This document shows, piece after piece, positions 33,689-51,305 of a stretch of DNA of 64,000 nt. The DNA comes from an uncultured Hyphomicrobiales bacterium (GTDB lineage: Bacteria > Bacteroidota > Ignavibacteria > Kapaibacteriales > Kapaibacteriaceae): positions 89,529 to 153,528 of the forward strand of contig CAZUGQ010000003.1 in the NCBI GenBank assembly GCA_964620125.1, given 5' to 3'. A program made the position numbers and the translations under genes. Each line of letters opens with the position of its first letter. The first letter of the stretch is position 1. Under the pieces are notes generated by a model. That model did not search any database, was not told where the DNA came from, and worked only from the letters and a program-made list of their open reading frames with translations.

Positions 33689-33833
33689 TCCGTTCACTTT
33701 TCGACTGACCTCGATGAACGCAAACCAATCAACCTCACTGACCTCATTTCTTCACACAACGGGAGTGCTTACCATGAAAACAAACAAGGGTAAAGAACCC
33801 ATCATTTCTATCCACAATACATGGAGAACATCC

Positions 33834-34772
33834 ATGACATTCAATTCACTTTGGAAGGGGCTTGCCATTGCGGCTACCCTGTTCCTTATCGGCTCGGAAG
33901 CTTTTGCTCAGCTTCCTGTACGGACGCGTCAGTTGGAGATGCTAGGCACCACTGCTGGTCGCCTGCTGTTCGATACTCCAGCTACCATAACGAACTACAC
34001 TGTTACTTGGCCAGCGAATGCTACTGGATTCCTCGCTGATGGTGATACAGCCATCATCGTTGGTGTGCGAACAGCCGCTAACGACATTGATCTCGGCTGG
34101 AGACAGGTAACCGGTGACCTGATCGACGGTATCGGTACAGCTGGTCAGGTAGCTTGGTTCCAAGATGCCAACACAATCGTGTCGGATGGAGGCTTCACAT
34201 ACAACTCGGCAACGCAGGATGTTGGAGTTGGTAATGACGTGAACGCTGGCAACGACGTGAATGCTGCCAACGACGTAGATGCTGCTAACGACGTCCGTGC
34301 AGGCACCACCATTACCCTTGATGGTTCTGCCGGTGACATCGTTTTTAATGGAGTTACGCTGCAATCTGGAACTTCCACGGGAACTACGATTGCGTTCGAC
34401 AACGCACCAAACGGAGGAAGCTATTACGTCACTCCATCTACAAACCCTGCAATTCTGGCAACGGATGGATACATCCTTGTATCAAACGGAGATGGTACTG
34501 CAACCTGGATTGCTAACCCTGCTTCCGGATTCAAGGCAGGTGTGTACACGCATGCTGGTGCAGACACGTACACGGTAAACATCACCTTTACGAACGCATA
34601 CCCTGCACTTACTGTGCCTTCGGTTACGCTTACCTACTTCGATGCCACAAACGCCAACATCGTTCAAGCCACAGCGATATCGAACACAGGGTTCACGATT
34701 ACAAGCACAGCACCAATCGTTGCTGGTGATGCAATAAGCTGGATGGCAAGCTCACCGGTTGACCTTCCATAA
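33834..34772 (+). CDS. secreted protein, member of the fibre-array family (short form)
   Basis: Signal peptide MTFNSLWKGLAIAATLFLIGSEAFA followed by QLPVRTRQLEMLG, which is shared with the next gene. Has VNAGNDVNAANDV repeats. C-terminus ...DAISWMASSPVDLP. Confidence 0.65.
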   Translation: MTFNSLWKGLAIAATLFLIGSEAFAQLPVRTRQLEMLGTTAGRLLFDTPATITNYTVTWPANATGFLADGDTAIIVGVRTAANDIDLGWRQVTGDLIDGIGTAGQVAWFQDANTIVSDGGFTYNSATQDVGVGNDVNAGNDVNAANDVDAANDVRAGTTITLDGSAGDIVFNGVTLQSGTSTGTTIAFDNAPNGGSYYVTPSTNPAILATDGYILVSNGDGTATWIANPASGFKAGVYTHAGADTYTVNITFTNAYPALTVPSVTLTYFDATNANIVQATAISNTGFTITSTAPIVAGDAISWMASSPVDLP

Positions 34773-34782
34773 CACTCTCCGT

Positions 34783-34838
34783 CCGGGGGCGCAGCCCCCG
34801 GCTTCTGGAGGGCAGGCAACGCCCTGCCTTCCAGAAGC
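34783..34838 (+). terminator. two consecutive GC-rich hairpins between tandem paralogs (CCGGGGGCGCAGCCCCCGG; CTTCTGGAGGGCAGGCAACGCCCTGCCTTCCAGAAG)
   Basis: Direct reading: 8-bp and ~15-bp stems immediately after the stop of the 33834 gene and 9 nt before the GTG of the 34847 gene. No T-run, so this is an attenuator/partial terminator or an RNA-processing structure. Confidence 0.4.
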
Positions 34839-34846
34839 TACATACA

Positions 34847-36472
34847 GTGAAGCTACGCGCCTACCATAGCCCCCTTTCAATCAGCATCATCGTGATGATG
34901 GTGGCGGTGTGCATTGTGCCCATACAGGCACAGTTGCCGGTGCGTACGCGGCAGGTGCAGCTATTGTCGAACAACAACACCAACTACACGACACTACGGA
35001 GTGCCGACGGGCAAACCACAAACTGGAGCCTGATCCAGCCGACGACGGTAGGGACAACCGGTAGTCTGCAGTTGAGTACGGTTACTGGTTCCGATGCACA
35101 GTTAAGTTGGCTTGCACCGGGATTGCCGGGGTACATCCTAGGCCTTGCGGCTGGCATTCCAGCCTGGGTGGATCCTGCCACATACCTGAGTGGTAGCTTC
35201 TGGGCGCTTACCGGCAACGCCGCCACCAACCCGGCTACCAACTTTCTTGGCACCACCGATGCGCAGCCTCTGGTGATTCGTACCAATGCCACCGAGGCCA
35301 TGCGAGTACTGAGCACAGGGCAGGTAGGTATTGGGACGGCAACACCTGGTGAGTTGCTTGAGGTGGAAGACGGCAACGTTCTCATCGGAACCAGTGCGGC
35401 AGGCAGCACGGGTGAGTTGCGCTTGGAAGAAGCGGGTGCCAATGGCAACAATTACGTAGGCTTCCAGGCAGCCGATGCCATGGCTGCGAATACAACGTAC
35501 ACGTTGCCGGATGCCTACCCATCGGTAAACAACTACGTGTTGGCTGCCACAACGGCTGGAGTAATGAACTGGCAGGATGCCAATGCATTGGTAGACAACT
35601 TCTGGTCGCTTGACGGTAATGCGGGAACCAACCCAGCCACACAGTACCTGGGCACGCAGGATGCACAACCACTTGTGATTCGTACCAATGCCACCGAGGC
35701 CGTGCGCATTAATGCCACCGGTGAGGTAGGCATTGGCACTACGGCTGCGGCGGGCTACCTACTGCATGTGGATGGCACGGCCGGTACACCGAACATTCGG
35801 TTTACAAGCGTGAGCGGAATTGCCAATGCAAGCATACCGGGAGGATTCGATAGGGTACTGATTTCTGATGCAACAGGCAATGTAGACCAGGCTTCGTATG
35901 CAGCTGTTGTTGGTACCACTGCATGGACACTGACCGGAAACGCCGGTACCAGCGTGGCTACAAACTTTGTTGGTACCACGGACAATGTTGGCCTGGTGTT
36001 CCGAACAAACAATACCGAAGTTGCACGCTTCAATGCGACGGGGGAGTTTGGTTTGGGTACCACTGCAGCAGCAGGATATCGGTTGCATGTTGCAGGCACA
36101 GGCGGCACGCCAAACGTAAGGATTGCAAGCCTGTCGTCGGACGCAGCAACAGTGCCCTCGGGTGAAGGCGTCGTCACTGCCGATGCCAACGGTGATCTGC
36201 GCCGACGCAGTGCTAATGACCTGTACACAATTCTGGGTATCGGCAGGGGCATCTACACGCCGGGTGCCGCAGGCAGCTCGTTTACTGTAACAACTACCGG
36301 ATTCGACATTGCTGCCGGTGCAACCGTAAACATTACGGTGTTCGGACCAACAGGTGGTGCCGTTCATGCTATGCTCACTTCGATTAGTGCCGCTACAGAC
36401 CAATTCTCCTTTACCACGTCTGCCACGATCGACGCCACCTACAGCATTCACTGGATGATCTTCAACCCGTGA
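34847..36472 (+). CDS. secreted tail-fibre-like repeat protein (fibre-array family)
   Basis: Signal peptide MKLRAYHSPLSISIIVMMVAVCIVPIQA + QLPVRTRQVQLL. Two copies of FW.L.GNA.TNPAT.[FY]LGT.DAQPLVIRTNATEA.R....G.VGIGT. Repeated VDGTAGTPN.R..S.S modules. C-terminus ...YSIHWMIFNP. Confidence 0.7.
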   Translation: MKLRAYHSPLSISIIVMMVAVCIVPIQAQLPVRTRQVQLLSNNNTNYTTLRSADGQTTNWSLIQPTTVGTTGSLQLSTVTGSDAQLSWLAPGLPGYILGLAAGIPAWVDPATYLSGSFWALTGNAATNPATNFLGTTDAQPLVIRTNATEAMRVLSTGQVGIGTATPGELLEVEDGNVLIGTSAAGSTGELRLEEAGANGNNYVGFQAADAMAANTTYTLPDAYPSVNNYVLAATTAGVMNWQDANALVDNFWSLDGNAGTNPATQYLGTQDAQPLVIRTNATEAVRINATGEVGIGTTAAAGYLLHVDGTAGTPNIRFTSVSGIANASIPGGFDRVLISDATGNVDQASYAAVVGTTAWTLTGNAGTSVATNFVGTTDNVGLVFRTNNTEVARFNATGEFGLGTTAAAGYRLHVAGTGGTPNVRIASLSSDAATVPSGEGVVTADANGDLRRRSANDLYTILGIGRGIYTPGAAGSSFTVTTTGFDIAAGATVNITVFGPTGGAVHAMLTSISAATDQFSFTTSATIDATYSIHWMIFNP

Positions 36473-36513
36473 TAAGCACAACTCACGATAGGAAACCTTC
36501 AATTCTCACTGGT

Positions 36514-39500
36514 ATGAGATACAGTCCACGGCTAGAGCAAACGTGCAGCCGGTTGTTGGCTGTGCTTCTCGTTGTCTGGTTACTACTGGCCGGTACGGGC
36601 ATGACGTTGGCTCAGGGCACACTTACGGATTCACTCATCCTCCGGAACGCTACGAACGGACGCCTAACGTTTGCACCGAACACTGCAACAACGCCTGCAG
36701 GATCATGGAGGCTTACATGGCCTCAAAGCGCTGGTAGCACAGGGTCGATCCTGTACGGAACGCTAACCGGAAGTGATGTGGCGCTAAGCTGGTTGGCCCC
36801 TGGTATCAACGGACAGGTCTTAACGTTAAGTGGCGGTGTGCCAACGTGGGCTTCTGCGCCAAACTGGCTAACTACTGGCAATGCTGGCTTGAACACGGGA
36901 TCTCTCGGATCTCCGGGTCCGAACTACCTGGGCACCAATGATGCACAAGACTTGCCGTTCGTTGTGAACAGTATCGAACGTATGCGCATTCGTAACGGTA
37001 GCTTTATTGACTGGCGCAACATTGTAACCGCGGCTGGTGGGCATACCGGCACTGTACTGACGCTTGACTACAGAACAGCCACAGGTGGTCCATACACGCA
37101 AAGCGGAACTACGCGAGGTCATTGGGTAAGCCCTGTCCTTGGCGGTGCCGGACTTGGTACGGCAAGCTCGGGTACGATTGTTTCATTTTTCTCGCAGTAT
37201 GATATTCAGGCAGCCGGCGACAACACAGGTTCCCTCATTGGTTTTCAGTCGCGTTACAACGTCAACGCCTCCTCGGGTGGGGTGTCTGGCGAAGCTATTG
37301 CGTTTAACGCAACACTGCAGATGCCCGGAGGAACTATTGCCAATCATTACGGTTTCAGGGAAAACGACATTACGGCTGCTGGCACAATCACCAACAAGTG
37401 GGGCTTCCGCGCCACCCCGCCGGGAAGTGCAACCAATTATGTTGGTGTGCAGATAGATAACATTGGCTTGAGTGGATCGCAACGCCGCAGACCTTTCTTC
37501 TACAATGCCACGAACCTTAACGAGCAGTTTTTGGTAAACGGTGCCGGCTTTATGGCTCTTGGCGACAGTTCACTGTCTGCAAAGTTTGTGATTGCCGATA
37601 ACGCAGCCCGCACGGCGGCTTTCACAGGGCAGTTAATCAATAACTTTGCTACCAGTTCAACCGCTGCAATCAACAAGATTGGCCTCGACATTGCGAGTAC
37701 AGGCTCCTGGACAGGGCTTGCGGCAACCAACATCGGTTTGCGCGTGCTTGTGTCGGGTGGCACAACGAACTATGCTGCTACATTCACGGGTGGCAACGTT
37801 GGTGTTGGTACAACCGCACCTGCCGCAGCATTCCATGTTGATGGCACAGCTGGCACGCCCAACGTTCGGCTTACGAGCGTAAGTGGTGCAGCAGCTGGCA
37901 CCGTTCCTCTTGGGTACGATCGGGTGTTGATTGCAAACAACACAGGCGACGTTAACCAGGCCAGCTACAACGCCGTTGTGGGAACAACTGCATGGTTGTT
38001 GGCTGGTAACTCCATAACCGCCAGTTGGGATGGAATCACTGGCTCGTTCCTTGGCACTACCAATACACAGGATCTTGTTCTCAACACCAATAACGTATTC
38101 AGAGCGCGCCTGGTTGGTGGTGCCGTCAACACAGGTAACCTCGTGCTAGGCACTACGGCTGCATCGCCAACAAACTCGACTGCAGCAAGTGCTACGGACA
38201 GGCTCACCGTGCTGGGTGGCGACATTTCTCTGAACTCCGAAACCAACAGCGCAATTACCCGCCAGATACTGTTCCGAGGAACTTCCGGGGCTGGCAACTT
38301 CCGCGTTGGTGCCGATGGTGGCGACATCTTCTGGCAAGGCGGCGGTGGACAGCAACTTCAGATGGGTTCCTTTTGGGGAATCCAGCTTCTTGGCCAGCGC
38401 GGCGTTGTTGGTTTCCCTGCATTCGCCGCTGGAGCAGCAGCAAACCCGCATGTAAACGTCATCCTTCAGCAGAATGCTGTCACCGGTCTAGCAATTACAC
38501 CAACACTCACCTTCACGGCAAACCAGCAGGAATGGCGAAACAATGCTGGCACAGCATTAAGTGTGGTGAATGCTAGCGGCAACTTCGGCTTAGGCGTTAT
38601 TACAGGAATCACTGCAAAGTTGCAGGTGAATGCCAACACTACTTCCGGAAATGCCATCCAATTGGATCCACACGGCGTCGCCGCTGGGAATACGAGTCAG
38701 ATTCGCTTCCTGGAGTTGGCAGCAAATGGCACCAACTATGCAGCCTTCAGGAGTGCCGACAACATGGCTGCAAACAACATTTACACACTTCCAGCGAGTG
38801 TTGGAACAGCCGGTCAAACATTAACGATTGCCTCCGTTACTGGTACGGATGCAACGCTTACGTGGAGTACGGCAGGTTCCAGCATTCACGAAGAAGTAAC
38901 AGCCGGCACGGGCGACATTCGTCGGCGCGTGGCCTACACCAACGGTACTGTTGGCAACCCTGGTGATTATGCCAACGACTTCATGGGAGTGCGAACTGCA
39001 GCAACCATGACGGCTTCTGGAAACTACTCTGGAATTTTAACCGGTACCTCCAATACAGCCTCAGGGCAGTACTCTCTTGTGGTTGGTGGTGCAAGCAACC
39101 AGGCAACCAATAGCTATTCCTCAGTGCTTGGCGGATCGTTCAATATCGTCGGCGGACAATACTCCTTTGTCGGTTCAGGAACAAGCAACAACGTTAGTGG
39201 TAATTACTCTGCCGTACCCGGTGGGGCATCAAACAACGTGTCCAGTAACTACAGTCTTACTGCTGGCCAATTAAACTCCGTATCTGGGAACAACACATTT
39301 GTTTTTGGATACGGTGCTAGCGTTTCGCAAAGCAACAGTGTTGTGTTCAACTTCCCAACGGCAGGCACTGATGCTACCCGAGTTGGCATCAACACCAACT
39401 CACCAAACACCAACCTAGACGTAGACGGTGGTGTGGCCATACGTCCACCTGCCAACGTGCAAATCAACGCCAACGGTGCGACGCTTACGCCCGGTCACCG

Positions 39501-39744
39501 CTCGTACATTGTCCTAGACCCAAATGGAGGTGACAGGACCGGACTCATCCTTGCAAACGGCGTCCAAACTGGACAAATCCTCATTCTTAGAATCCTTGAA
39601 ACTTCCGGTAACTTCATTCAACTTCCCGATGCCGGTGCCAACAATGCATCTCTAACTGGTAACTGGGTTGGAAGAGCCGATGATACCATAACGCTCATCT
39701 GGTCTGGTGTGGACTGGGTAGAGCTTTCGCGAAGCAACAACTAA
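36514..39744 (+). CDS. large secreted beta-helical fibre/adhesin-like protein with C-terminal WVELSRSNN module
   Basis: ORF 36469 trimmed to MRYSPRLEQTCSRLLAVLLVVWLLLAGTGMTLAQG. N-terminal module (SWRLTWPQSAGSTGSILYGTLTGSDVALSWLAPG) is shared with the 34847 gene. YadA-like GNYSGILTGTSNTASGQYSLVVGGASNQATNSYSSVLGG repeats. C-terminal ...TGLILANGVQTGQIL...LPDAGANNASLTGNWVGRADDTITLIWSGVDWVELSRSNN. Confidence 0.75.
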   Translation: MRYSPRLEQTCSRLLAVLLVVWLLLAGTGMTLAQGTLTDSLILRNATNGRLTFAPNTATTPAGSWRLTWPQSAGSTGSILYGTLTGSDVALSWLAPGINGQVLTLSGGVPTWASAPNWLTTGNAGLNTGSLGSPGPNYLGTNDAQDLPFVVNSIERMRIRNGSFIDWRNIVTAAGGHTGTVLTLDYRTATGGPYTQSGTTRGHWVSPVLGGAGLGTASSGTIVSFFSQYDIQAAGDNTGSLIGFQSRYNVNASSGGVSGEAIAFNATLQMPGGTIANHYGFRENDITAAGTITNKWGFRATPPGSATNYVGVQIDNIGLSGSQRRRPFFYNATNLNEQFLVNGAGFMALGDSSLSAKFVIADNAARTAAFTGQLINNFATSSTAAINKIGLDIASTGSWTGLAATNIGLRVLVSGGTTNYAATFTGGNVGVGTTAPAAAFHVDGTAGTPNVRLTSVSGAAAGTVPLGYDRVLIANNTGDVNQASYNAVVGTTAWLLAGNSITASWDGITGSFLGTTNTQDLVLNTNNVFRARLVGGAVNTGNLVLGTTAASPTNSTAASATDRLTVLGGDISLNSETNSAITRQILFRGTSGAGNFRVGADGGDIFWQGGGGQQLQMGSFWGIQLLGQRGVVGFPAFAAGAAANPHVNVILQQNAVTGLAITPTLTFTANQQEWRNNAGTALSVVNASGNFGLGVITGITAKLQVNANTTSGNAIQLDPHGVAAGNTSQIRFLELAANGTNYAAFRSADNMAANNIYTLPASVGTAGQTLTIASVTGTDATLTWSTAGSSIHEEVTAGTGDIRRRVAYTNGTVGNPGDYANDFMGVRTAATMTASGNYSGILTGTSNTASGQYSLVVGGASNQATNSYSSVLGGSFNIVGGQYSFVGSGTSNNVSGNYSAVPGGASNNVSSNYSLTAGQLNSVSGNNTFVFGYGASVSQSNSVVFNFPTAGTDATRVGINTNSPNTNLDVDGGVAIRPPANVQINANGATLTPGHRSYIVLDPNGGDRTGLILANGVQTGQILILRILETSGNFIQLPDAGANNASLTGNWVGRADDTITLIWSGVDWVELSRSNN

Positions 39745-39785
39745 CAACACCAACAGGATTTTTTCGGGAACACAGGAGAACCACG

Positions 39786-41675
39786 ATGCCATCAGGAAAG
39801 ACCACCGACCTCAGGTCTGCACAGATGGCCGCCACCCTGGCCACACTCACCATCTTGGCGGTCTGCGGACCACATGCGCTCGCACAGACCAACGATCAGG
39901 TTACGTGGGGTACGTTTCGCATTGAGCGCAACGCTGCTCCAGGTACATACATCACCTTTGAACCCCCGCTAACTTCTATTACGCCGTATACAATCCGGTG
40001 GGGAGCTACAGGACCAAGCAGCAACTATGTTTTTGTTGGAACTCTTGTTGCACCAGATAGCGTGGTATTGGAAGGTGAGTTGTCTTCACAATACATCTTG
40101 GAATTGGTATCGAGCGGGCAGCTCAATATCCGCCGGTCCTCGTTAGCACTAGCGCCTGGCAGTCCGCAGGCAACACCCGGGTATGTAGCACACGACTTTC
40201 AAGGTGCGCGTACAAGCAGCGACCAGACGGCAAGCGGAGACCGATCGGTCATCTTGGGAGGTGCATCCAACCGCGCGGATGGTTCGAAGGCCGCCGTTGG
40301 TGGTGGCCTTGGCAACCGAACGTCCAGCACCAATGATGTGATTGCTGGCGGTTCCGGCAACTACGTCTCGTCGAGCGACGGTGCAATTCTCGGTGGAGGA
40401 AACAACTACATCAACCAGAACGATGCCGTGATCATCGGTGGCTACGACAACAGTGCCAATGCTAATCGCGGTGTGTTGCTTGGTGGCACCGATAACAGCA
40501 TCACTGCTAATCAGGCGTTCATTGGCGGTGGTAGTAGTAATTCAAACAGCGGCGACAATGGAACACTTTTCGGCGGATACGACAACACAACATCTGGAAC
40601 ACATTGTGTTCTAATCGGTGGGTGGATGAACACCGTATCCTCTACCAACGAAGCCACACTCTTCGGTGGTCAGAACAACTCCATCAACGGTAATCACGTG
40701 TTTGTTGGAGGGGGCTTTACCAACACAGCAAACAGCGGTCAGTGCGTGATTTTTGGTGGGAGCAACATGAGCGTGGCCGGAAATCAATGCGTGGGCCTGG
40801 GCGGTCAGCAGAATCAGACGAACGGATCCCAGAACACGGTGCTGGGTGGCCAGACGCATACCTTCAGCAGTAGTGGGCAAATGTCAATCGGTGGTGGCAA
40901 TACAAATCAAACGCAAGCCAACTACACTACTGTGAATGGTGGCAGAACGAACACGGTGCAACAACAATACAGCACCATCATGGGTGGAAGAAACGGAACC
41001 CTCAACGCTCAGAACTCTCTCATGTTCAGTGGAGAAAGCTCATCTACGTTAACCGTGACAACAACGGCAACGGCAACGTTCACCAATGTTGATATCTGGT
41101 TGGCAAATAATGACGGCACTCCACGGCAGTTCCGGTTTTGGGAAAGCAGTGGATCGTCTGGGTCATACCCAGGTGCTACCACCAACTACGTTGCCATCGT
41201 TGCACCGTCGGCAACAAACTCCAACCTTGATAACAGCTACACGCTACCGGATAGAATACAGACAAGTGGATTACGAGCACTTGCCATTGCATCCAGTCCG
41301 GCACCAACATCCACATCAGCAACTCTCGAGTGGGTAACGGCACCAGTGTATACCGTAACCACAGTGAACGCCACTGGAGCAACCACAAACCTCTCAGCTG
41401 CCAATCTGAATGTTGACCAGCCAGTAAAGATTAACCCAAATAGCACACCAGCTAACAGGCGAGTAACCCTTGCTAACGGAACCACTGATGGTCGGGTGGT
41501 AACCATTTATGTATACAATGGCACGGCGGGCAACGGCATCCGAATTCAGGGAACTGACACCAACCTTGCTCTGCAAGGCGGTGCCAATGTAGACCTTGAT
41601 CAGAATGACTCCATTTCACTCATCTGGGACAACACATCCACGAAGTGGATCGAGATAGGGAGGTCGGTAAACTAA
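39786..41675 (+). CDS. secreted YadA-head-like (Hep_Hag-type Gly/Asn-rich beta-roll) repeat protein with conserved N- and C-terminal modules
   Basis: Signal peptide ...LAVCGPHALAQTNDQ. N-module VTWGTFRIERNAAPGTYITFEPPLTSITPYTIRWGATGP. About 18 repeats of the GG.SN.A.G..A.I.GG.NN type. C-module NRRVTLANGTTDGRVVTIYVYNGTAGNGIRIQGTDTNLALQGGANVDLDQNDSISLIWDNTSTKWIEIGRSVN. Confidence 0.75.
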   Translation: MPSGKTTDLRSAQMAATLATLTILAVCGPHALAQTNDQVTWGTFRIERNAAPGTYITFEPPLTSITPYTIRWGATGPSSNYVFVGTLVAPDSVVLEGELSSQYILELVSSGQLNIRRSSLALAPGSPQATPGYVAHDFQGARTSSDQTASGDRSVILGGASNRADGSKAAVGGGLGNRTSSTNDVIAGGSGNYVSSSDGAILGGGNNYINQNDAVIIGGYDNSANANRGVLLGGTDNSITANQAFIGGGSSNSNSGDNGTLFGGYDNTTSGTHCVLIGGWMNTVSSTNEATLFGGQNNSINGNHVFVGGGFTNTANSGQCVIFGGSNMSVAGNQCVGLGGQQNQTNGSQNTVLGGQTHTFSSSGQMSIGGGNTNQTQANYTTVNGGRTNTVQQQYSTIMGGRNGTLNAQNSLMFSGESSSTLTVTTTATATFTNVDIWLANNDGTPRQFRFWESSGSSGSYPGATTNYVAIVAPSATNSNLDNSYTLPDRIQTSGLRALAIASSPAPTSTSATLEWVTAPVYTVTTVNATGATTNLSAANLNVDQPVKINPNSTPANRRVTLANGTTDGRVVTIYVYNGTAGNGIRIQGTDTNLALQGGANVDLDQNDSISLIWDNTSTKWIEIGRSVN

Positions 41676-43531
41676 TGATGAACCCAACCAACACTCGCAT
41701 GATCGCGGTCTTCCCCGCGACTCTGATACTTCTTGCGTTCGGACGTACTCTTTCAGCGCAAACGAACGACGTTATCACCGTTCAAGAAATCCGCATTGAA
41801 CGCAATGCCCAGCCCGGCACATACATCACTCTCAGCCCGCCAACCACAGCGATCACGCCCTATACCATGATCTGGCCGCCAACACCACCATCTTCAAGCG
41901 GTCTTGCACTAGCCTCTACGGGAACGAGCAGTCCCTACCAACTGCAATGGGGAGTTGCGGCGGGATTGACGATTGAACTGGTAGAGAGCACGAACGGCAA
42001 CCTGCGGCGTATCGGTTCGCTGAATGAAGGGGGTATTGTTGGTACTCCTGGAGCATACTCCAACGACTTCTCCGGCAGCCGAGACAATTCTTCGATGACG
42101 GCGAGCGGCAACTATGCGCTGATTGGAGGTGGCGAAGACAATACGGCAAGTGGTAACTATAGTGTTGTACTTGGTGGTCAAGACAATACGGCTTCGGGTT
42201 TGAACAGCACCGTTGCTGGTGGTGCAAACAACGTTGCCAGTGGAACAGGAGCGGCCATCCTTGGTGGTACTACAAACTCAAGTGCCGGTGACTACGCCTC
42301 GATAGGCGGCGGTGGCAACAACAGCATCTCTGCCTCCGGTGACTATGGCTTCATTGGGGGGGGGACCAATAACGTTCTTTCTGGCATGGGTGGCTTTATT
42401 GGCGGAGGCGAAAACAATAATGCCAGTGGTTTGTACACGGTGATTGGCGGTGGTGCAAACAACGACGCCACCGATACCGCTGCCGTTGTTGGTGGAGGAA
42501 GCAACAATACTGCCAGTGGCCGACGCAGTGTTGTTGGAGGTGGTGATGGCAACACCGCCAGTGGAATACTCAGCTTTGTTGGTGCTGGAACGGGTAACCT
42601 TGCTAGTGGTCAGGGGGCTGCGGTAGGCGCCGGCACGAGCAATACGGCAAGTGGTCAGTACGCATTGGTTGGTGGGGGTGCTAGCAACACCGTTGGCCAG
42701 AACTATGGCGTTATTGGCGGAGGCCAAAGCAACACGGTAAACACCGGAACGCACAGTGCGGTTGTTGGTGGTGCTAGCAACAGCGTCACAGGTAGCTACA
42801 GCTTCATCGGGGGAGGGCAGAACAACAGCATTGCTAGCGACTATTCTGCTATCCCTGGTGGGCAAGGAATGACGTTAGCAAGTGGCTCAACTGGTTCCTT
42901 TGGTTGGAATGCTACGGGAACCAGCATGAGCATCTCCACGCCGAATGTGTTTGTAGTGGCCAATGCAGATATCTGGCTGGCAAACAACAACAGCAATCAA
43001 GGTGAGCTGAGACTGTTTGAAGCCAATAGCACCACAGGCAGCTTCCCGCCCGCCAATACCAACTACGTGTCTATCCAAGCCCCTTCCAGTACAAATGGCA
43101 ACCTGAACAACACCTACACCCTGCCCGACAGAGTTGGTAGTTCAGGGCAGGTTTTAACCATTGCATCAGGAGCCACAACGACTGCTGCAACCTTACAGTG
43201 GTCCAGTGTGATTAGCCAAAACGTGAACACGGTGAACGTAACTGCTGATGATCAAGCAATCACGGCTGCACAGATGGACGGCATAACGTATCTGCGGCTG
43301 AACTCCGACGGCACTGCCGGAAATCGTACGGTTACATTGGCCAACGGAGTAGTTGATGGCATACGTTTGGTGGTTCGGTGCGTGGCCACGGCAGGCAACG
43401 GAGTCGAGCTGGCAGACGCAGGAAACCTAGCTCTGAATGGAACAATGACGATGGGTAATCAGGATGCCATCGTGCTGATGTGGGACGCAACGAACACGCT
43501 ATGGGTAGAGCTCAGCAGGAGTGACAACTAA
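41675..43531 (+). CDS. paralog of the 39786 gene (YadA-head-like repeats, same N- and C-modules)
   Basis: ATG overlaps the previous TAA (TAATGATG). MMNPTNTRMIAVFPATLILLAFGRTLSAQTNDV. N-module ITVQEIRIERNAQPGTYITLSPPTTAITPYTMIWPPTPP. C-module NRTVTLANGVVDGIRLVVRCVATAGNGVELADAGNLALNGTMTMGNQDAIVLMWDATNTLWVELSRSDN. Confidence 0.75.
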   Translation: MMNPTNTRMIAVFPATLILLAFGRTLSAQTNDVITVQEIRIERNAQPGTYITLSPPTTAITPYTMIWPPTPPSSSGLALASTGTSSPYQLQWGVAAGLTIELVESTNGNLRRIGSLNEGGIVGTPGAYSNDFSGSRDNSSMTASGNYALIGGGEDNTASGNYSVVLGGQDNTASGLNSTVAGGANNVASGTGAAILGGTTNSSAGDYASIGGGGNNSISASGDYGFIGGGTNNVLSGMGGFIGGGENNNASGLYTVIGGGANNDATDTAAVVGGGSNNTASGRRSVVGGGDGNTASGILSFVGAGTGNLASGQGAAVGAGTSNTASGQYALVGGGASNTVGQNYGVIGGGQSNTVNTGTHSAVVGGASNSVTGSYSFIGGGQNNSIASDYSAIPGGQGMTLASGSTGSFGWNATGTSMSISTPNVFVVANADIWLANNNSNQGELRLFEANSTTGSFPPANTNYVSIQAPSSTNGNLNNTYTLPDRVGSSGQVLTIASGATTTAATLQWSSVISQNVNTVNVTADDQAITAAQMDGITYLRLNSDGTAGNRTVTLANGVVDGIRLVVRCVATAGNGVELADAGNLALNGTMTMGNQDAIVLMWDATNTLWVELSRSDN

Positions 43532-43610
43532 CATGGCAAACCGAGTATACATGTGTAACCGAACTCCAGCTAGTCCACCGACTCGTTCGAGAGAAGGCAC
43601 AGGAGTTCGG

Positions 43611-44006
43611 ATGCAGTTGCCTTTGGTCAGTGCAGTTGTTGTCACACTTGCATGGCTCGGGTGTGCTCTACCAGGCATGGCTCAGCAGCCGGTGCTCGTA
43701 AACATGGGAGCTACGATCACCGTTACCGGTGGGGGGCTTCTGTATGTGTCTGGTCCAACGGAAATACGCGCAGGCCGCATCGATGCAATGGACCTCTCAC
43801 AGGTGCGATTCAATGGTCCAATGGCGATTTACACAGGTGGTCTGTACCTGTTTAAAGATGCAACGGGACTCATCACAGGTGATTTGGACATCAAACTCGA
43901 TGGCGTATGCTGGCGGTATAAACCTGGAGTGCTAACCGTTGAAGGAACCATTTACAATGACGGAGAACTCAACAACGACGGAGAAATCGTCATCGGCAAA
44001 CCATAA
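43611..44006 (+). CDS. small secreted protein (about 131 aa) embedded in the fibre array
   Basis: ORF 43521 trimmed to MQLPLVSAVVVTLAWLGCALPGMAQQ (signal peptide). Gly-rich beta-type sequence; ends NDGELNNDGEIVIGKP. No recognisable family. Confidence 0.5.
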   Translation: MQLPLVSAVVVTLAWLGCALPGMAQQPVLVNMGATITVTGGGLLYVSGPTEIRAGRIDAMDLSQVRFNGPMAIYTGGLYLFKDATGLITGDLDIKLDGVCWRYKPGVLTVEGTIYNDGELNNDGEIVIGKP

Positions 44007-44053
44007 TCTGCACGTAGGGTTCTAGGTCGTAAATCTCCTGTGGGGTAAACATC

Positions 44054-45340
44054 ATGCGAACAATCAACACGCTCATTTGCTTCTGCCTATCCAGTGCCAT
44101 TCTTTCTGGTCAGGATGACTCGTACCAAACATTCAACGCAATACGATTGGAGAACAGCAGCAACCCAGGTGCTTTTGTCCAGCTCAATGCACCAACGGGC
44201 CTAACATCCTATAACCTTACTTTGCCCGCAACTGGTCCGTTAAACACCACACAACGTTGGGCCTTCTCTCTGAACGGTTCCAACAATGCCTTGAGTTGGT
44301 ATGCAACACCATTAGGCAACACCAATCAGATTGCTTACTTCACTGGTACCGAATCCATTGTTAGTGGTAGCAACCTGACGTGGAATCCTACAACCCAGCA
44401 GATGGGCGTGTCGGGTACGTTGAACAACACCCTGTTGAGCCTTACAAAGTCAGGTGCAATAACAGGCAACGATACTTTGCTCATGATTACAGCAACATCC
44501 ACTGGAAGTACGGCAATCTCTCAAACATTGCTTGAGCTTAATGCATCAAGTACGTTAACTGCAGGCACTCGGCGTGGTCTTCACATAGCTGTTACCGGTG
44601 CTACCAACAACTATGCAGCCATTTTTGAGTCAGGAAGGGTTGGTGTTGGTGTAGTTGCACCGAATACCACCTTCGATGTTAGTGGCACGACAGCAACTCG
44701 TGAGTTTAACTACACTGCCAATCTTAGTGCTACGAACAACAACGTGGATTTTACTGGTGATGGTAACACGTCTTCGTTCGTCCGGGTTGGCTCAACTACT
44801 TCGGGAACAGTCTCAATTACCGGATTTGCAGGTGGATCAAATGGGAAAGTGCTAACCGTTTACAACGCAACTGGGTACGGATTGCGCTTGGAGCATAACG
44901 ATGCGGGATCTACGGCTGCCAATAGAATAAAGGCTCCTAACAGTACGGACTTTGTAATAATTCCTGGCGCAGCGTACCAGCTTGTGTATTCCGAAACAGA
45001 TCAACGTTGGATAGTAGCCTTTTCAGGACCGGGCGAGATAACGACTCTCGGTAATGCCAACGTTACGGTGACAACAAGCTCTAGCTACCAGCTGCCTTCG
45101 TCAATGTCCTCCTACATTCAAGTTACCAGCAATTGCCCAGGAAACGACTGCTTTGCTACGTTCGAGGATGGCATTTCGCCGGGACAGATTCTGGTTGTTC
45201 AGAATCTTGGTCCCGATATACTGAAATTCTCAGGTTCAAACTTTGCACCGGACAACAGCACCAACCTTCAGGATGACGAGTCAATACCCTTTATCTGGAA
45301 TGGTACGAAGTGGGTGCAAATGGCGGAGGCATCAAACTAA
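44054..45340 (+). CDS. secreted fibre-array family protein with two copies of the C-terminal WVE-type module
   Basis: Signal peptide MRTINTLICFCLSSAILSGQ. N-module FNAIRLENSSNPGAFVQLNAPTGLTSYNLTLPATGP. Internal module GKVLTVYNATGYGLRLEHND...AAYQLVYSETDQRWIV. Terminal GQILVVQNLGPDILKF...DDESIPFIWNGTKWVQMAEASN. Confidence 0.7.
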   Translation: MRTINTLICFCLSSAILSGQDDSYQTFNAIRLENSSNPGAFVQLNAPTGLTSYNLTLPATGPLNTTQRWAFSLNGSNNALSWYATPLGNTNQIAYFTGTESIVSGSNLTWNPTTQQMGVSGTLNNTLLSLTKSGAITGNDTLLMITATSTGSTAISQTLLELNASSTLTAGTRRGLHIAVTGATNNYAAIFESGRVGVGVVAPNTTFDVSGTTATREFNYTANLSATNNNVDFTGDGNTSSFVRVGSTTSGTVSITGFAGGSNGKVLTVYNATGYGLRLEHNDAGSTAANRIKAPNSTDFVIIPGAAYQLVYSETDQRWIVAFSGPGEITTLGNANVTVTTSSSYQLPSSMSSYIQVTSNCPGNDCFATFEDGISPGQILVVQNLGPDILKFSGSNFAPDNSTNLQDDESIPFIWNGTKWVQMAEASN

Positions 45341-45599: not shown

Positions 45600-45687
45600 T
45601 ATGGGAATGTGGGAATGTGGGAATATGGGAATATGGGAATATGAGAATATGAGAATGTGGGAATGTGCAAATGTGGGAATGGTAGAA
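45600..45687. repeat. simple-sequence repeat: ~11 tandem copies of an 8-bp unit (TGTGGGAA/TATGGGAA/TATGAGAA) ending at the start codon of the next gene
   Basis: Direct reading of 45601-45695: ATGGGAA TGTGGGAA TGTGGGAA TATGGGAA TATGGGAA TATGAGAA TATGAGAA TGTGGGAA TGTGCAAA TGTGGGAA TGGTAGAA TGCAGACA. Several ATGs in different frames lie inside the repeat. Confidence 0.85.
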
Positions 45688-47807
45688 TGCAGACAATAGG
45701 AACCAATGTTCCGAGATGTCTGGGCAGGCGAGTGCGCCATATCGTATTTGCCTGTTTGTCCATGTCCTTTGCCATGTTCTCGCATGCCGCTGCTTACGCT
45801 CAGCATCTTGAGAACAGAGCCACGGGCACTGTTCGTAACTCCGGCACAATCCGGTTTCGCAGTGATTCGGGGAAGTATAAAAACGATGCTGCCTATACCA
45901 ACATCACTAATAACGTAATCCAGTTTGAAGGGTCAAACAACCAGTTCACGGACCTCTCCGGACAAATCGTGGGCACCACTGCTCTTGGACAGAATCCGGC
46001 ATGGCGTGTTCCTGGAATGGTTCGGTACAGCAATCCAACTAGCGCGATGCAGTACGTGCAAAAACGATACTACACCGACTTGGAGATGGCGGATAGCTCT
46101 TCAAAGTGGATACCAGACAGCGTTTTTGTAGGGGGCAGGTATACGATCTTCCTGTCCGGTCCGAGAACCTATAACGGAACCTTCTTCTATGATGGCTCAC
46201 AGCCACAAGACATCATGCAGGAGAAGGAGTTAAGTGGCACTACCAACCGTTACAACAACATAACGTTGCTTCATAGCCCCAAGAATGTGCGTTCAGGCTA
46301 CGAAGTACGTATGGATGGAATATTCCTCAATGATACGCTGAGCCCCTTGTATGTTGAAGGCGACTTTACATGGGGTTCAAACTCATATGTGAATGCACCG
46401 GTAACGGTCTGGGCTGGTGGCAAACAAACCACAGGATATGGTGTTACAGAGTTACGAGCTGACGTAGAAGTGCAGAATGGACTGTTCCTCGTAGCAGATG
46501 ATGCCGACACCGTGACCATCTTTCCAACGTACGAGTTGAGGCAGCAAGCTGATCCAGCCGCCCTTTTTGCCATGGGGCGCAACACACGCTTGTTAGTGTT
46601 GGGTGACTATCGCAATCTGTATGGTCCGCTCACGAATAGCACGTTTGATACCACGTCGCTCGTTGACTACGCCGGAGTACAGGATCCGCAGATAATGCAG
46701 GCAACTGCAGCTACACACCCGTATGGACATCTGCGCACTTCCAACTCCGTGAAGAATGCCAACGGAGATGTCCATGTGGCTTCTACGTTGAGTGTAAACG
46801 ATACGAATGTTGTTATGGTGCCTCACACGATGAGTCTCACTCTCGGTGCTGCTACCTACACGAATAACGCCGAAGTGATTGGTGCCTTCCGCCGAGTGTT
46901 GGCGGGTGCTACCACCACGAATGCATATACATTCAATAACAGCGAGACAACAGCACTGTTCGTTACCGTACCCAACCAGCTCACACTCGATGTACGGCCG
47001 CAAACACGCCCGAACGACTACGATCCTACTACCGACATCTTCCGAAAGATCACGGTAACACACGACGGTAATTGGAAGGCAACGATCAGAGTGGGGTATA
47101 AAGCCGAAGACATTCCAAACACCTGGGTGCCAAGCACGGCCGAACGCTTGCTCAAGATGTACAACGCCTACCCGCCACCTAATGAATACTCCATAAAGCT
47201 CACACCTACCGTGCCGCCAACGTACATCCGACGTCCACTTGCACAAAGCACGGGCATTGCTTTTATTGAGTTGTTCGGAATCGAAAATCAAGGTCCGGAC
47301 AATCTTCGACTTGATAATGGAAACGATCTGCTGCTACGTGCAAGCCGCGACACACTCAAGGCTGTTGCCTCCGGGCGGTGGAGTAACCCATTTACGTGGG
47401 ATGAAGCCCGTGAACCAGAACCTGAAGACAGAGTTGTGATTGACGGATTCACCGTTCACACTGGATACATACGTGCCAACGACAACTATGCTGTCCGTGA
47501 AGCGTGGCCGGACAGCATGGCTCTGCAGGTAACCATTGGCACATCACCAAACAGTGCCTTGCTGTTTGGTTATGAAAGCCCTGGAGTTTGGGACGCTTTC
47601 TCGCTGGTTCCTAACTCATCCGTAAATCTCATCACGCGCCGTATTGCTCCAGCGTTTGTTCAGGCGGACGTTCTTGACCAAACAGCGGCCGATATAGATG
47701 GTGGTCTGATTGTTTACCGCGGAAGCACGTTCCTGTCGCCGAATCTCATTCTCGCACCTAATGCTACCGTAAACAATGCCGGTACGCTTGTAGTGGGGGT
47801 GCCCTAA
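45687..47807 (+). CDS. large secreted protein of unknown function (paralog of the 47894 gene)
   Basis: MQTIGTNVPRCLGRRVRHIVFACLSMSFAMFSHAAAYAQ signal peptide. The upstream in-frame ATG at 45657 lies inside the SSR. N-terminal region GTVRNSGTIRFRSDSG...VIQFEGSNNQF aligns with GVIKNTGMIKIRGDAS...HIHFEGTSRKM of the next gene. Confidence 0.65.
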   Translation: MQTIGTNVPRCLGRRVRHIVFACLSMSFAMFSHAAAYAQHLENRATGTVRNSGTIRFRSDSGKYKNDAAYTNITNNVIQFEGSNNQFTDLSGQIVGTTALGQNPAWRVPGMVRYSNPTSAMQYVQKRYYTDLEMADSSSKWIPDSVFVGGRYTIFLSGPRTYNGTFFYDGSQPQDIMQEKELSGTTNRYNNITLLHSPKNVRSGYEVRMDGIFLNDTLSPLYVEGDFTWGSNSYVNAPVTVWAGGKQTTGYGVTELRADVEVQNGLFLVADDADTVTIFPTYELRQQADPAALFAMGRNTRLLVLGDYRNLYGPLTNSTFDTTSLVDYAGVQDPQIMQATAATHPYGHLRTSNSVKNANGDVHVASTLSVNDTNVVMVPHTMSLTLGAATYTNNAEVIGAFRRVLAGATTTNAYTFNNSETTALFVTVPNQLTLDVRPQTRPNDYDPTTDIFRKITVTHDGNWKATIRVGYKAEDIPNTWVPSTAERLLKMYNAYPPPNEYSIKLTPTVPPTYIRRPLAQSTGIAFIELFGIENQGPDNLRLDNGNDLLLRASRDTLKAVASGRWSNPFTWDEAREPEPEDRVVIDGFTVHTGYIRANDNYAVREAWPDSMALQVTIGTSPNSALLFGYESPGVWDAFSLVPNSSVNLITRRIAPAFVQADVLDQTAADIDGGLIVYRGSTFLSPNLILAPNATVNNAGTLVVGVP

Positions 47808-47893
47808 TGGTGTGGGTAGATCACATCTTAGCTCGATGTGCATCGTTCTTGGCACGTATTCCTTTACCGTTGCCACCAGGTAGCACATGGGCA

Positions 47894-49996
47894 ATGCCTA
47901 ACCTTGTCGGGTTGGCAGTTATGCTCCTCGCACTCTGCTTACCATGCTCCAGCCTCTTATCGCAGCAGCCTTCCATTCTGTTCTCGGAAGGAGTGATAAA
48001 GAATACAGGTATGATCAAGATACGCGGCGACGCAAGCTTAACACAGGATAGCATCGGTGGTGTTGTGCGCTACGAGCGCAATCATGCTGCAGATACTCAG
48101 CTTGTAGCACAGCTCACCTATGCACACATTCACTTCGAAGGTACAAGCCGAAAGATGATCCTTGACCCAACAAGGCCGCTCATCGCCGATAGCACCTTCT
48201 GGTCAGTTGCTAGAGATGTTCAACTAACTCTCAGCCCAGACACATACATCCAGGCAAATAGAACTGTACGCCACGAAGGTGTGATCAACCTCAACCTCCG
48301 CTATGGACGGTTTGTTCTTCGTGGTACGGAAAATCAAGATGTAAGTGGACAAGGTTTTATCCCGATTCTCGAGCTTGATAACCCAACGGGAGCAACAATC
48401 ACCCGAGGGGGGGGGCTGCGGGTGTACGAGCGCCTGGACTTGCAGCGAGGCCAGCTTTCCAACTCACCTGCCGACAACATTTCCGTGTTGCAGGGGGCTT
48501 GGGTTTGGCGTGATGACAGTGGCTCAATTGCCGTGGAGCCACAATGGAACACACGCCTCAACCTTCGGTATTATGGTGATAGTGCGATGCTCGGGGGGCC
48601 AGAAATGGTTCGGAACACCAACGCAATCGGTCACCTGGTGAATGACGACCTAGCCGGTCTCACCCTACCCTACACGATAACCGTTAATGACTCGCTGATT
48701 CTGCGTGGGCACATTCATACCGAGCAGGATGATGTGAACCGTCATGAATTGGTGTACAGTGCAACAATGGACCCTAACTATGTGGGGGTATGGCCAGAAG
48801 TGATCGGCACGCTTACCCGAAGTACACTGCTGGATGGTCGTACAATGAGAATGAACAACAGCTTCACGACCATCTACTTCGCGAATTCTCAAGATCGCGG
48901 CAGTGTGGTCCAATATGCAGTGCGAAGCAAACCTAAAACCACACCACTGCCACTAACGGACATTACCTATAAGGTAGACAGATTCCTGCAGCTCCAAGCA
49001 CGAGATTTTGTGGGCGACACCGTTGCTGATAGCACGTACACGCTCACGCTTGGGTATGCCTGGCGCAACCGAGAGATAGCTGGAGTGGAGCAACCGACTG
49101 TTGTGGAAACCACTGCTCCGTTGCAGGGCCTTGAAGACCAGTTGGTTCTAATGCGGTATAATGGCCTGTCATATAACCCATACGGCTTTTCGATTACGCC
49201 AACAACACCTCTACCGGATCCGCTTGAGGCGTGGCGGTACAGTACAGCAAGTTTGGTGCGTGCCGGCGGTGATTTTGCAATTGGGCTTTCAACAGGACCA
49301 ATCTGGGTGTTAAACACTCGAGTATTCCTCGAAGGTCCGATGCGCACGTATGGTGAGAACTTCACGCCAGAAATGTCGACCGATCTTGCGGCCCTCGGTC
49401 TTGTGCCCAATGTTGCCCCAGACGTATACCCGTACTCGCTCGACCCGGACAGGCTTACAGACACTGCCATCGCCATCGGAGACAGTATCGTTGACTGGGT
49501 GACCGTGGAATTTCGTACCTCGCCAACCGCCAGTGGTCCAGCAGACCTAATTGAAACCTTACTGCTCACAAAGGATGGTCGGGTGTTGGATCCGCAAACG
49601 TTACGACCCAGAATTATCGAAGGTATTCCGTCAGGCTTCTACAACATTGCTGTTCGACACCGAAATCACTTGGCTGTCATCACTGAGCAAAAGGTGTTGG
49701 TAGACAGATCCAACCTCGGGTATGTGGTGGACCTTACAACCGGCACTGGCATGTTCGGTGGAGCCGCTTCGCAAAAGCTGATTGGAACGGCAAACGGACG
49801 GCGGTGGTTTGGCTTGATCGCTGGAGAGGTAGAGGGGGGGGACGAAATACTCCGCTCCGACTACAACCTTGTTTGGGATGCCAGAAATCTGGAAGGCTAC
49901 CTGATCACAGACACCGACTTGAACGGCATCGTGACTACACGGGATGTGAACGTAACATGGAACAATCGGGAGCGCAGCAGTGTGGCCCCGAGATAA
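47894..49996 (+). CDS. large secreted protein of unknown function (paralog of the 45687 gene)
   Basis: ORF 47807 trimmed to MPNLVGLAVMLLALCLPCSSLLSQQ. Contains G9 and G8 homopolymer tracts (~48404, ~49833) encoding Gly runs. Confidence 0.6.
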   Translation: MPNLVGLAVMLLALCLPCSSLLSQQPSILFSEGVIKNTGMIKIRGDASLTQDSIGGVVRYERNHAADTQLVAQLTYAHIHFEGTSRKMILDPTRPLIADSTFWSVARDVQLTLSPDTYIQANRTVRHEGVINLNLRYGRFVLRGTENQDVSGQGFIPILELDNPTGATITRGGGLRVYERLDLQRGQLSNSPADNISVLQGAWVWRDDSGSIAVEPQWNTRLNLRYYGDSAMLGGPEMVRNTNAIGHLVNDDLAGLTLPYTITVNDSLILRGHIHTEQDDVNRHELVYSATMDPNYVGVWPEVIGTLTRSTLLDGRTMRMNNSFTTIYFANSQDRGSVVQYAVRSKPKTTPLPLTDITYKVDRFLQLQARDFVGDTVADSTYTLTLGYAWRNREIAGVEQPTVVETTAPLQGLEDQLVLMRYNGLSYNPYGFSITPTTPLPDPLEAWRYSTASLVRAGGDFAIGLSTGPIWVLNTRVFLEGPMRTYGENFTPEMSTDLAALGLVPNVAPDVYPYSLDPDRLTDTAIAIGDSIVDWVTVEFRTSPTASGPADLIETLLLTKDGRVLDPQTLRPRIIEGIPSGFYNIAVRHRNHLAVITEQKVLVDRSNLGYVVDLTTGTGMFGGAASQKLIGTANGRRWFGLIAGEVEGGDEILRSDYNLVWDARNLEGYLITDTDLNGIVTTRDVNVTWNNRERSSVAPR

Positions 49997-51305
49997 TTAC
50001 CGGCCTTATAGAACACAGCGTGTTTTAACAGCTCTGGGTTGCTTGGTGTTCCTTGCCGGACTTGTTCGTGCTCAGGTAGACGGCCGTATCGTCGTGCGGC
50101 CGATGTTGGATCCAGCATACGGGCGATTTACCTTCGACCTTACCATCAGGCGAGAGAGTTCGCGGTGGACGTATCTGGCTAATACGACCATACGGCTTGA
50201 AAGCGTTGACCTTGATCCAACCGGCGGATTCAATCCTGCAGTTCATCAGATCACATTTGTTCCTGATAGCAGCGATCTAAACCTTGTTCCATACAACGCG
50301 CCATCAATGGATGGGTACTATGTTGACTATGGCATGGTGAATGGTGACCTTGTGGTGCACGTGCTAGGTCCGGACAGTGTGCAGAATGCTCACGATATGA
50401 CCAGTACGCTCGATTCCGCTCGAGTTGGCCGATTCATCATCGAGAGCAATGACGGCTCGTATGTGCCTGAACAGCTGCGCATGGCTCAGCCCCTTGACTA
50501 CTATCAGGCAACGGCGTTCAAGATTGACCATGACAGCGTAACGGGTACGGGCTTCGACCGGAACGTCTGGTTTAACAAGCACGACAACCCACCACTCGTC
50601 ATGGCATTTGATGAGCTGCCACCCCCACCGGACACCTGTGGAGCCATTTTTAACTTCTATGGATCCTACGTTGGTGATCTGAGAGTAATGCTTGGCTTCG
50701 ACGTTACGGACGAACACTGCTATGAAGGTTTCATCATCGAACGTGCCTTAGTTGATCGGACACAACCTGACGTTCTGGACTTTCAGGGCAGACCGCAGTT
50801 AACCTATCTCAATGAACCCCGCTTGTTAAGCTGTTTGTGCCTCGAGCCACAAGTGCATGACAGTTTGTTCGACGAAGTAGAATTCAGACGTGAGATTTAT
50901 GCCTATCGCCTGATTGGCAAACGGTTGCCATTTTACGGTGACTCAAATGAAGTGATTGACACGATTTTTCTTCGAATTCCCAATGCGATCATCTCCAACG
51001 CTCGCATACTTGAGAATCCGTTCAAGGACGTAACCACCATTCGGTTCAATGCCGATGATCGGTTACGACTCGATGCAAAAGTGTTTGATCTTGGTGGACG
51101 CCTGATCGGATACCTGGAGAATGAGAAGGGGCAACCAGCGGAAAACATGGAGTATCCGCTTGGAATAGGATATGAGTTGAAATTCAATGCTCCCGACATA
51201 GCATCGCAAGGGCTGTACAACATCCTACTGGTAGGTACACCAGTTGATGATGAAAGTGTGGCGGAGGGTAGTCGAGTGATCATCAAGGCGCAGCTTCTAC
51301 GATGA
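49980..51305 (+). CDS. secreted protein with type-A T9SS C-terminal sorting domain
   Basis: Signal peptide ...VLTALGCLVFLAGLVRAQ. C-terminal ~90 aa ILENPFKDVTTIRFNADDRLRLDAKVFDLGGRLIGYLEN...GLYNILLVG...RVIIKAQLLR fits the T9SS CTD pattern. Confidence 0.7.
   Translation: MWPRDNYRPYRTQRVLTALGCLVFLAGLVRAQVDGRIVVRPMLDPAYGRFTFDLTIRRESSRWTYLANTTIRLESVDLDPTGGFNPAVHQITFVPDSSDLNLVPYNAPSMDGYYVDYGMVNGDLVVHVLGPDSVQNAHDMTSTLDSARVGRFIIESNDGSYVPEQLRMAQPLDYYQATAFKIDHDSVTGTGFDRNVWFNKHDNPPLVMAFDELPPPPDTCGAIFNFYGSYVGDLRVMLGFDVTDEHCYEGFIIERALVDRTQPDVLDFQGRPQLTYLNEPRLLSCLCLEPQVHDSLFDEVEFRREIYAYRLIGKRLPFYGDSNEVIDTIFLRIPNAIISNARILENPFKDVTTIRFNADDRLRLDAKVFDLGGRLIGYLENEKGQPAENMEYPLGIGYELKFNAPDIASQGLYNILLVGTPVDDESVAEGSRVIIKAQLLR

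Follow-up and report, generated by a model that had tools for sequence, protein, structure and literature searches.

A phage depolymerase-type beta-sandwich module at the C-termini of fibre-like proteins encoded in a Kapaibacteriales contig

A beta-sandwich fold is found both in phage tail proteins and in secreted glycoproteases. The structure of CBA120 TSP4-N united the XD1 domain of TSP4, T4 gp9, the XD1 domain of gp10, the CpaA repeats and StcE in one fold, and the CpaA repeats and the StcE domain were described as glycan-binding (PMC8825819). Here we analyzed a ~100-aa module of this predicted fold that ends four consecutive fibre-like proteins. They are encoded in a 64,000-nt stretch of DNA (the window; contig CAZUGQ010000003.1, positions 89,529 to 153,528, assembly GCA_964620125.1) of an uncultured bacterium labelled Hyphomicrobiales and placed in the Kapaibacteriaceae (Ignavibacteria, Kapaibacteriales) by GTDB. 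An earlier interpretation made from the DNA letters only (the sequence-only reading), which was partly supported by our analysis, had proposed a new domain acting either as a sorting or anchoring signal, comparable in position to the C-terminal domains (CTDs) of the type IX secretion system (T9SS), or as a conserved distal knob. Profile matches place the module in the Pfam family PF25692 (Phage_depo_C, phage depolymerase C-terminal beta sandwich domain). We consider it likely that it forms the folded free end of a Sec-exported, probably trimeric surface fibre, where it would bind a ligand or cap and nucleate the fibre, and that it is not a secretion tag.

The window proteins share features with several described systems and differ from each. 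T4 gp9, gp10-XD1 and CBA120 TSP4 XD1 are N-terminal or internal in baseplate or branching proteins, whereas the window copies are terminal on fibre-like proteins and only 13-21% identical to them in sequence. CpaA repeats and StcE are reported as glycan-binding modules of secreted glycoproteases; the window proteins, in contrast, have no metalloprotease domain, match the StcE family PF20944 only below threshold, and might bind glycans by analogy. Compared with the phage proteins of PF25692, the window module lacks a recognizable depolymerase or pectate-lyase body and instead follows YadA/UspA1 head-like repeats in Sec-exported proteins that are chromosomal and not part of a virion. Central repeats of one array protein align with the UspA1 head, as in trimeric autotransporter adhesins, but a PF25692 sandwich occupies the C-terminus in place of the membrane anchor. 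No YadA-type C-terminal beta-barrel anchor was reported in Pfam scans of the array proteins, which we did not class as such adhesins. Like T9SS CTDs, the module is C-terminal on proteins with Sec signals, similar in size and beta-rich. Unlike them, it matches no CTD model, has another taxonomic range, is frequently internal or in tandem, and occurs mostly on proteins without a signal peptide.

Assignment of the terminal module and its predicted fold

The four genes are consecutive open reading frames (ORFs) on the + strand. Their shared C-terminal module is all-beta and spans ~100 aa by the envelopes of hidden Markov models (HMMs), and not ~80 aa as first estimated. Gene 1 (36469-39744; 1091 aa), whose product is identical to database protein P0050, has a signal-peptide-like N-terminus, mosaic repeats and module copy 1 at residues 993-1091 (nt 39445-39741), ending ...LIWSGVDWVELSRSNN directly before the stop codon (...WVELSRSNN). 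Gene 2 (39786-41675; 629 aa) encodes a signal-peptide-like N-terminus (...HALAQT), repeats that resemble the UspA1/YadA head, and copy 2 at residues 523-629 (nt 41352-41672; ending ...LIWDNTSTKWIEIGRSVN, with ...WIEIGRSVN). Its paralogue, gene 3 (41645-43531; 628 aa; 37% identity over the full length), carries copy 3 at residues 524-628 (nt 43214-43528; ending ...LMWDATNTLWVELSRSDN, with ...WVELSRSDN). Gene 4 (44054-45340; 428 aa) has one terminal copy, copy 4, at residues 330-428 (nt 45041-45337; ending ...FIWNGTKWVQMAEASN, with ...WVQMAEASN), and one probable internal copy. All four ORFs on which the sequence-only reading was built exist, although two of its start sites (36514 and 41675) lie at ATG codons inside genes 1 and 3. 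Three copies fit the ending W(V/I)E(L/I)xRSxN that it had described, and copy 4, with WVQMAEASN, does not. Asparagine is the very last residue before the stop in 4/4 proteins.

The likeness of these four C-termini is, on sequence comparison, far beyond chance. In hmmsearch, a homologue profile (A4) that itself included the four window copies matched them at E-values from 3e-17 to 2e-27 (copy 1, 2.8e-24; copy 3, 2.2e-27; copy 4, 2.8e-17). The independent model PF25692 matched the isolated copies at E-values of 1.6e-9 to 8e-3. Across the whole window, the module or its terminal motif was present in only these four of 283 six-frame ORFs.

The gene 4 product probably contains a second, diverged copy of the module, as the sequence-only reading had stated, at about residues 239-321 (nt 44768-45016, + strand; ...GKVLTVYNATGYGLRLEH...AYQLVYSETDQRWIV). 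Profile-profile comparison with hhalign (A5 against A4) gave a probability of 78% and an E-value of 1.8e-5 over 73 columns, and two orthologues in a related locus (L015) had internal module matches at E-values of 2e-4 and 1e-3. With plain HMMs, the match was not significant on the window sequence alone (PF25692, 14.7 bits, E-value 0.04; our own profiles, 7 bits).

PF25692 has a model length of 90 positions and a gathering score of 25 bits. Isolated modules passed this score for copy 2 (38.5 bits), copy 1 (25.4 bits) and copy 4 (25.2 bits), and the best match, copy 2, covered profile positions 4-89. When full-length proteins were scanned, only the products of gene 2 (33.7 bits) and gene 4 (26.6 bits) passed. 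The family model also matched 36 of 48 homologous database modules, and the nearest homologues in the database, P0002 and P0003, come with a precomputed PF25692.2 assignment. By these matches, each of the four copies is a new member of an already known family. The idea of a new domain thus fails, because mapping onto an already defined family was the outcome that the sequence-only reading itself had named as refuting it. PF20944 (StcE_b-sandwich) was a weaker second match (best 20.0, 18.7 and 16.0 bits; copy 3, 16-20 bits). Membership in PF20944 was rejected, the scores being under its gathering score of 27 and indicative of a related fold only. The four full-length array proteins had no match in PHROGs, and no relevant paper on PF25692 or phage Solidus gp83 emerged from the literature searched.

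Copy 2 was modelled with AlphaFold2 from an alignment of the 48 homologous modules, and the model was all-beta (predicted local distance difference test score, pLDDT, 80.8; predicted template modelling score, pTM, 0.75). Confidence was highest in its two final strands, ...SISLIWD and KWIEIGRS. A single-sequence model of the whole gene 4 product was unusable (pLDDT 37). As modelled, the module is a ~100-aa beta-sandwich of the T4 gp9/TSP4-XD1/CpaA-repeat/StcE type, a fold it has in common with the C-terminal domains of phage tailspikes and depolymerases. Structural relatives of the model, with entry and match value in brackets, were CpaA (6o38, 10.9), the Acinetobacter phage Solidus gp83 tailspike depolymerase (24qj, 10.3), CBA120 TSP4-N (7rej, 9.0), the proximal subunit of the long tail fibre of phage KP1 (9f4a, 7.7), the capsid spike of phage Pa223 (9ny6, 6.8), StcE (4dny, 6.1) and the Gp9-like baseplate protein of phage KP1 (9f4a, 6.0). 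These relatives essentially reproduce the fold group described with the TSP4-N structure (PMC8825819). In BFVD, the fold was matched by 160 viral models at E<=1e-3, among them models of pectate-lyase proteins, minor tail proteins and tail fibres. Predicted giant-virus proteins (Marseillevirus, Pandoravirus, Klosneuvirus and Edafosvirus) matched as well, with E-values of 4e-6 to 1e-4, and the fold thus extends beyond tailed phages.

Distribution and position of the module

The sequence-only reading had called for an HMM search of proteomes for the phylogenetic distribution of the module and its co-occurrence with T9SS genes. Profile A2 matched 9,323 of 1.84 billion cluster representatives at E<=1e-3 (2,097 at E<=1e-10), from bacteria, archaea and phages, a range that is not restricted to lineages known to have a T9SS. 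The matched proteins ranged from stand-alone modules of 94-160 aa to proteins with 5-16 tandem copies. Module hosts included Alphaproteobacteria, Actinomycetota, Chloroflexota, bacteria of the candidate phyla radiation, methanogenic archaea, cultured phages and IMG/VR contigs. A scan for WVE[LI]SRS[DN]N in one genome per species returned 12 loci, with the motif 0-1 residues from the stop in 12/12. Their bacterial hosts were Kapaibacterium, Bacteroidales, Shimia, Dehalococcoidales, Patescibacteria, Saccharimonadales, Solirubrobacterales and two metagenome-assembled genomes (MAGs) with alphaproteobacterial labels; the archaeal hosts were Methanomethylophilaceae and Methanosarcinales. Four of the multi-copy proteins (P0005, P0006, P0008 and P0026) contain 5-16 tandem internal copies with a shortened ...YDGTNW-x-x... 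ending that lacks S-R-S-[DN]-N, and by this sequence pattern they form a distinct repeat-type subfamily.

The family is used in phage tail fibre and tailspike proteins. The module is the C-terminal end of the gp43 'appendage' of the N4-like Achromobacter phage Axy11 and of the gp023 'tail protein' of Escherichia phage alia, it matches positions 458-542 of the 542 positions of phrog_33904 ('tail fiber protein'), and the exact motif lies 0-3 residues before the stop in six IMG/VR viral contigs. When window copy 3 was compared with cultured phages by tblastn, no match was found; matches were obtained only with a more typical family member. Outside the window, module genes usually adjoin tail genes, as in prophage-like loci: in Shimia the neighbours are a tape measure protein and a J-like tail fibre, and at two archaeal loci they match tail-fibre and virion-protein PHROGs. 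The Shimia MAG (NZ_CBDDGH010000005.1) has two module loci ~320 kb apart on one contig (L003 and L005), which encode proteins of 615 and 762 aa with near-identical C-termini (...WVEISRSDNA and ...WVEISRSNNA); the L003 copy is the one next to the tape-measure and J-like tail genes. This arrangement suggests two related prophages or tail-like elements. A signal-peptide-like N-terminus was present in only ~9 of the 140 best-scoring family members.

The position of the module was counted in the best 150 of the 9,323 profile matches, a sample skewed to multi-copy proteins because scores sum over copies. Within this sample, 115 copies were terminal and 170 internal, and the single-copy proteins had the module at the terminus in 74 of 77 cases. 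Internal copies as frequent as terminal ones were the second outcome that the sequence-only reading had named as refuting it, and the window itself holds a probable internal copy. Terminal copies end in the consensus W-[LVI]-E(96%)-[LIV]-[SA]-R(94%)-S(92%)-[DN]-N(95%), percentages that may be inflated because the ranking profile contained the motif. Among the 110 terminal copies with a tryptophan in the last 14 residues, the consensus was followed by 0, 1 or 2 residues in 19, 23 and 68 cases, respectively. We found no paper quoting this signature of PF25692 in the searchable literature. The ending W-x-E-L-S-R-S-[DN]-N-COOH is near-invariant in the aligned copies and mildly interesting in itself; followed by 0-2 residues, it is sharply conserved across bacterial and archaeal viruses and is a handy marker for the annotation of fibre genes.

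The chromosomal fibre locus

The four genes belong to a run of twelve consecutive ORFs on the + strand (30029-52108), and a signal-peptide-like N-terminus is present in 12/12 of the products. Seven of these are fibre-like proteins that share segments among paralogues in mosaic fashion and whose central repeats recall the UspA1 head and tail-fibre PHROGs. Residues ~142-384 of the gene 2 product (window positions 40200-40950) contain central GG-x-x-N repeats that align with the UspA1 head (PDB 3pr7, E-value 9.8e-9). The products of genes 1, 2 and 3 have central GG-x-S/N-N repeats with sub-threshold matches to the LbR_Ice_bind beta-roll. Three upstream paralogues (30029-36472, + strand; starts 30029, 33714 and 34847; 1219, 352 and 541 aa) carry a different C-terminal module of ~90 aa, with endings ...INWLVKNP, ...ISWMASSPVDLP and ...IHWMIFNP (pattern ...W(L/M)...NP). 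This second module had no Pfam match, and the proposal that it is a distant relative of PF25692 was rejected (hhalign probability 0.3%). The product of the gene starting at 34847 matches the tail-fibre PHROGs 9942 and 18345.

The array is followed by four conserved genes (45657-52108, + strand) for proteins of 716, 729, 441 and 268 aa with signal-peptide-like N-termini. Together with a 161-aa protein they make up the last five of the twelve genes, and their order is kept in five other loci: L001 (a Kapaibacterium MAG), L007, L011, L015 (Ignavibacteria MAG GCA_016191145.1) and L016 (CP129493.1, a 2.99-Mb genome). The recurring order is fibres, a ~130-160-aa protein, proteins of ~710, ~700, ~440 and ~270 aa, and then a TPR kinase. 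None of the 161-, 716-, 729-, 441- and 268-aa products had a match in Pfam, PHROG or NCBIfam, and the 716- and 729-aa products had no sequence match in the PDB. PF13568 (OMP_b-brl_2) was matched by one homologue of the 268-aa protein, which makes an outer-membrane beta-barrel probable for this protein too. The four downstream genes are candidate accessory or anchoring genes of the locus.

L007 and L011 are 63-79% identical in nucleotides to the window over aligned segments. L007 (JAGFIZ010000052.1) is labelled Bradyrhizobiaceae and L011 (CAZGHI010000010.1) as a Hyphomicrobiales MAG, but both are syntenic with the window, and their GC content of 50-53% is like that of the Kapaibacterium and Ignavibacteria loci; these contigs look mis-binned or mislabelled. 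As judged from gene order and homology, the locus is conserved in Ignavibacteria/Kapaibacterium-like bacteria. Its flanks in the window encode housekeeping functions (SufBCDS, superoxide dismutase, a Lon N-terminal-domain protein, a TPR histidine kinase and Nuo/Mrp subunits), and no phage genes were found. The array is chromosomal and does not lie in a prophage.

Possible roles of the module

In the free-fibre-end interpretation that we favour, the four proteins consist of an N-terminal Sec signal peptide, a common N-terminal segment, mosaic beta-helical repeats and the module as a cap. The fibre would probably be a trimer with the module at its distal end. The role of the module there would be to cap and nucleate the fibre, to bind a ligand, or both; the analogy to the CpaA and StcE domains makes a glycan a plausible ligand. 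The W-x-E-L-S-R-S segment is the final, confidently predicted beta-strand of the sandwich, which is why the chain stops right after ...W-x-E-L-S-R-S-x-N with no need for anything further; this strand and the preceding ...LIWD strand may pair as a hairpin that closes the fold. Passage of the fibres through the outer membrane, or their attachment to it, could involve the four downstream signal-peptide proteins, including the probable beta-barrel. The conserved distal knob of the sequence-only reading is supported by the evidence and corresponds in essence to this interpretation.

Several observations weigh against this interpretation. Copy 3 scored 17.0 bits with PF25692, under the gathering score, and the family model missed two of the four copies, copy 1 among them, in full-length scans. 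Sequence searches of the PDB with the module profiles A1 and A4 gave no significant match, so the structural assignment depends on the predicted model. In T4 gp9, gp10 and TSP4 the fold is reported to serve structural or protein-protein roles and not glycan binding (PMC8825819). Between orthologues, the module is at least as conserved as the remainder of the protein (60-82% identity), with no sign of arms-race hypervariability; such conservation is unlike that of a receptor-binding tip in an arms race and is equally compatible with a structural cap and with a conserved ligand. Trimerization, and which end of the fibre is free, are properties that we infer.

Folding of trimeric phage fibres is commonly nucleated by C-terminal domains. 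The module might accordingly have been retained chiefly as a trimerization or folding nucleus, a structural cap with no role in ligand binding. The threefold axes around which the fold is reported to pack in TSP4 XD1, T4 gp9 and gp10 (PMC8825819) would suit such a cap, as would the conservation between orthologues in place of hypervariability, and the near-invariant R-S-[DN]-N-COOH ending could sit at the trimer axis. We regard a purely structural role as rather unlikely. Should the C-terminus instead be proximal, the module could be a protein-protein docking domain that plugs the fibres into an anchor made of the conserved downstream proteins. The occurrence of the fold in T4 gp9/gp10 and TSP4-N, which are baseplate and assembly proteins, the presence of the module on all four of these fibre paralogues, as expected of a common docking site, and the accessory genes directly after the array would be in keeping with this. 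However, the three upstream paralogues (starts 30029, 33714 and 34847) combine common N-terminal segments with an unrelated C-terminal module, an indication that all of the fibres attach through the N-terminus, and in phage fibres and appendages the module lies at the virion-distal C-terminal end. Partner binding, moreover, is assigned to the neighbouring XD2 and XD3 and not to XD1 (PMC8825819). Proximal docking is thus less likely than a free end, and we consider it improbable.

A sorting or anchoring signal like a T9SS CTD, recognized by a secretion machine and then removed or used for attachment, would be in keeping with the position of the module at the extreme C-terminus of Sec-signal proteins in a bacterium that evidently uses a T9SS. 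The size of ~100 aa and the beta-sandwich resemble CTDs, and striking conservation is seen both in the last nine residues and in how far they lie from the C-terminus. However, the T9SS CTD models in Pfam and NCBIfam (TIGR04183, TIGR04131 and PF18962) matched neither the full-length proteins at E<=1 nor the isolated modules at E<=10. The same models recognized ordinary type A CTDs on other proteins of the window, namely on the products of 57207-59678 (+ strand; TIGR04183, 24.9 bits, cut-off 23) and 17305-19863 (+ strand; PF18962, 31.6 bits, gathering score 27); the product of 14060-17221 (+ strand) gave only a weak type A match. This indicates that the organism uses a T9SS with standard tags, which are absent from the fibre proteins. 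The three proteins with type A CTDs are Ig-domain and beta-propeller repeat proteins. A type B CTD would be expected to come with an adjacent PorP/SprF-family gene, and the downstream 268-aa probable barrel had no PorP/SprF match in NCBIfam or Pfam. The module also occurs in MAGs of Shimia, Solirubrobacterales, Dehalococcoidales, Patescibacteria, Saccharimonadales, Methanosarcinales and Methanomethylophilaceae and in phages, and we know of no T9SS in these host groups. Finally, ~94% of the best-scoring family members have no signal peptide, and internal copies occur. On these sequence comparisons, a role as a secretion tag is not supported and is already largely refuted; we give it hardly any credence.

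A broader and, in our view, unlikely extension of the free-fibre-end interpretation is that the twelve signal-peptide genes (30029-52108) form an undescribed surface fibre system, assembled from phage tail-fibre parts that have become domesticated and with an export route that involves no T9SS CTD. Such a system may comprise the seven tail-fibre-like proteins with two kinds of end domain and five conserved proteins of unknown fold, including the probable outer-membrane barrel. The R-S-[DN]-N-COOH ending, which thousands of phage fibres have as well, would then be functional, and may be a threefold-axis, ion-binding or chaperone/assembly recognition site and not the mere end of a strand.

In conclusion, assignment to PF25692 disposes of what had looked like a new secretion signal, the module itself being catalogued and very common. 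A lineage of the Fibrobacteres-Chlorobi-Bacteroidetes (FCB) group nevertheless keeps a conserved chromosomal locus for Sec-exported fibres made of phage-type modules, together with unknown accessory proteins. Receptor-binding hardware of phages may have been reused here on a cell surface.

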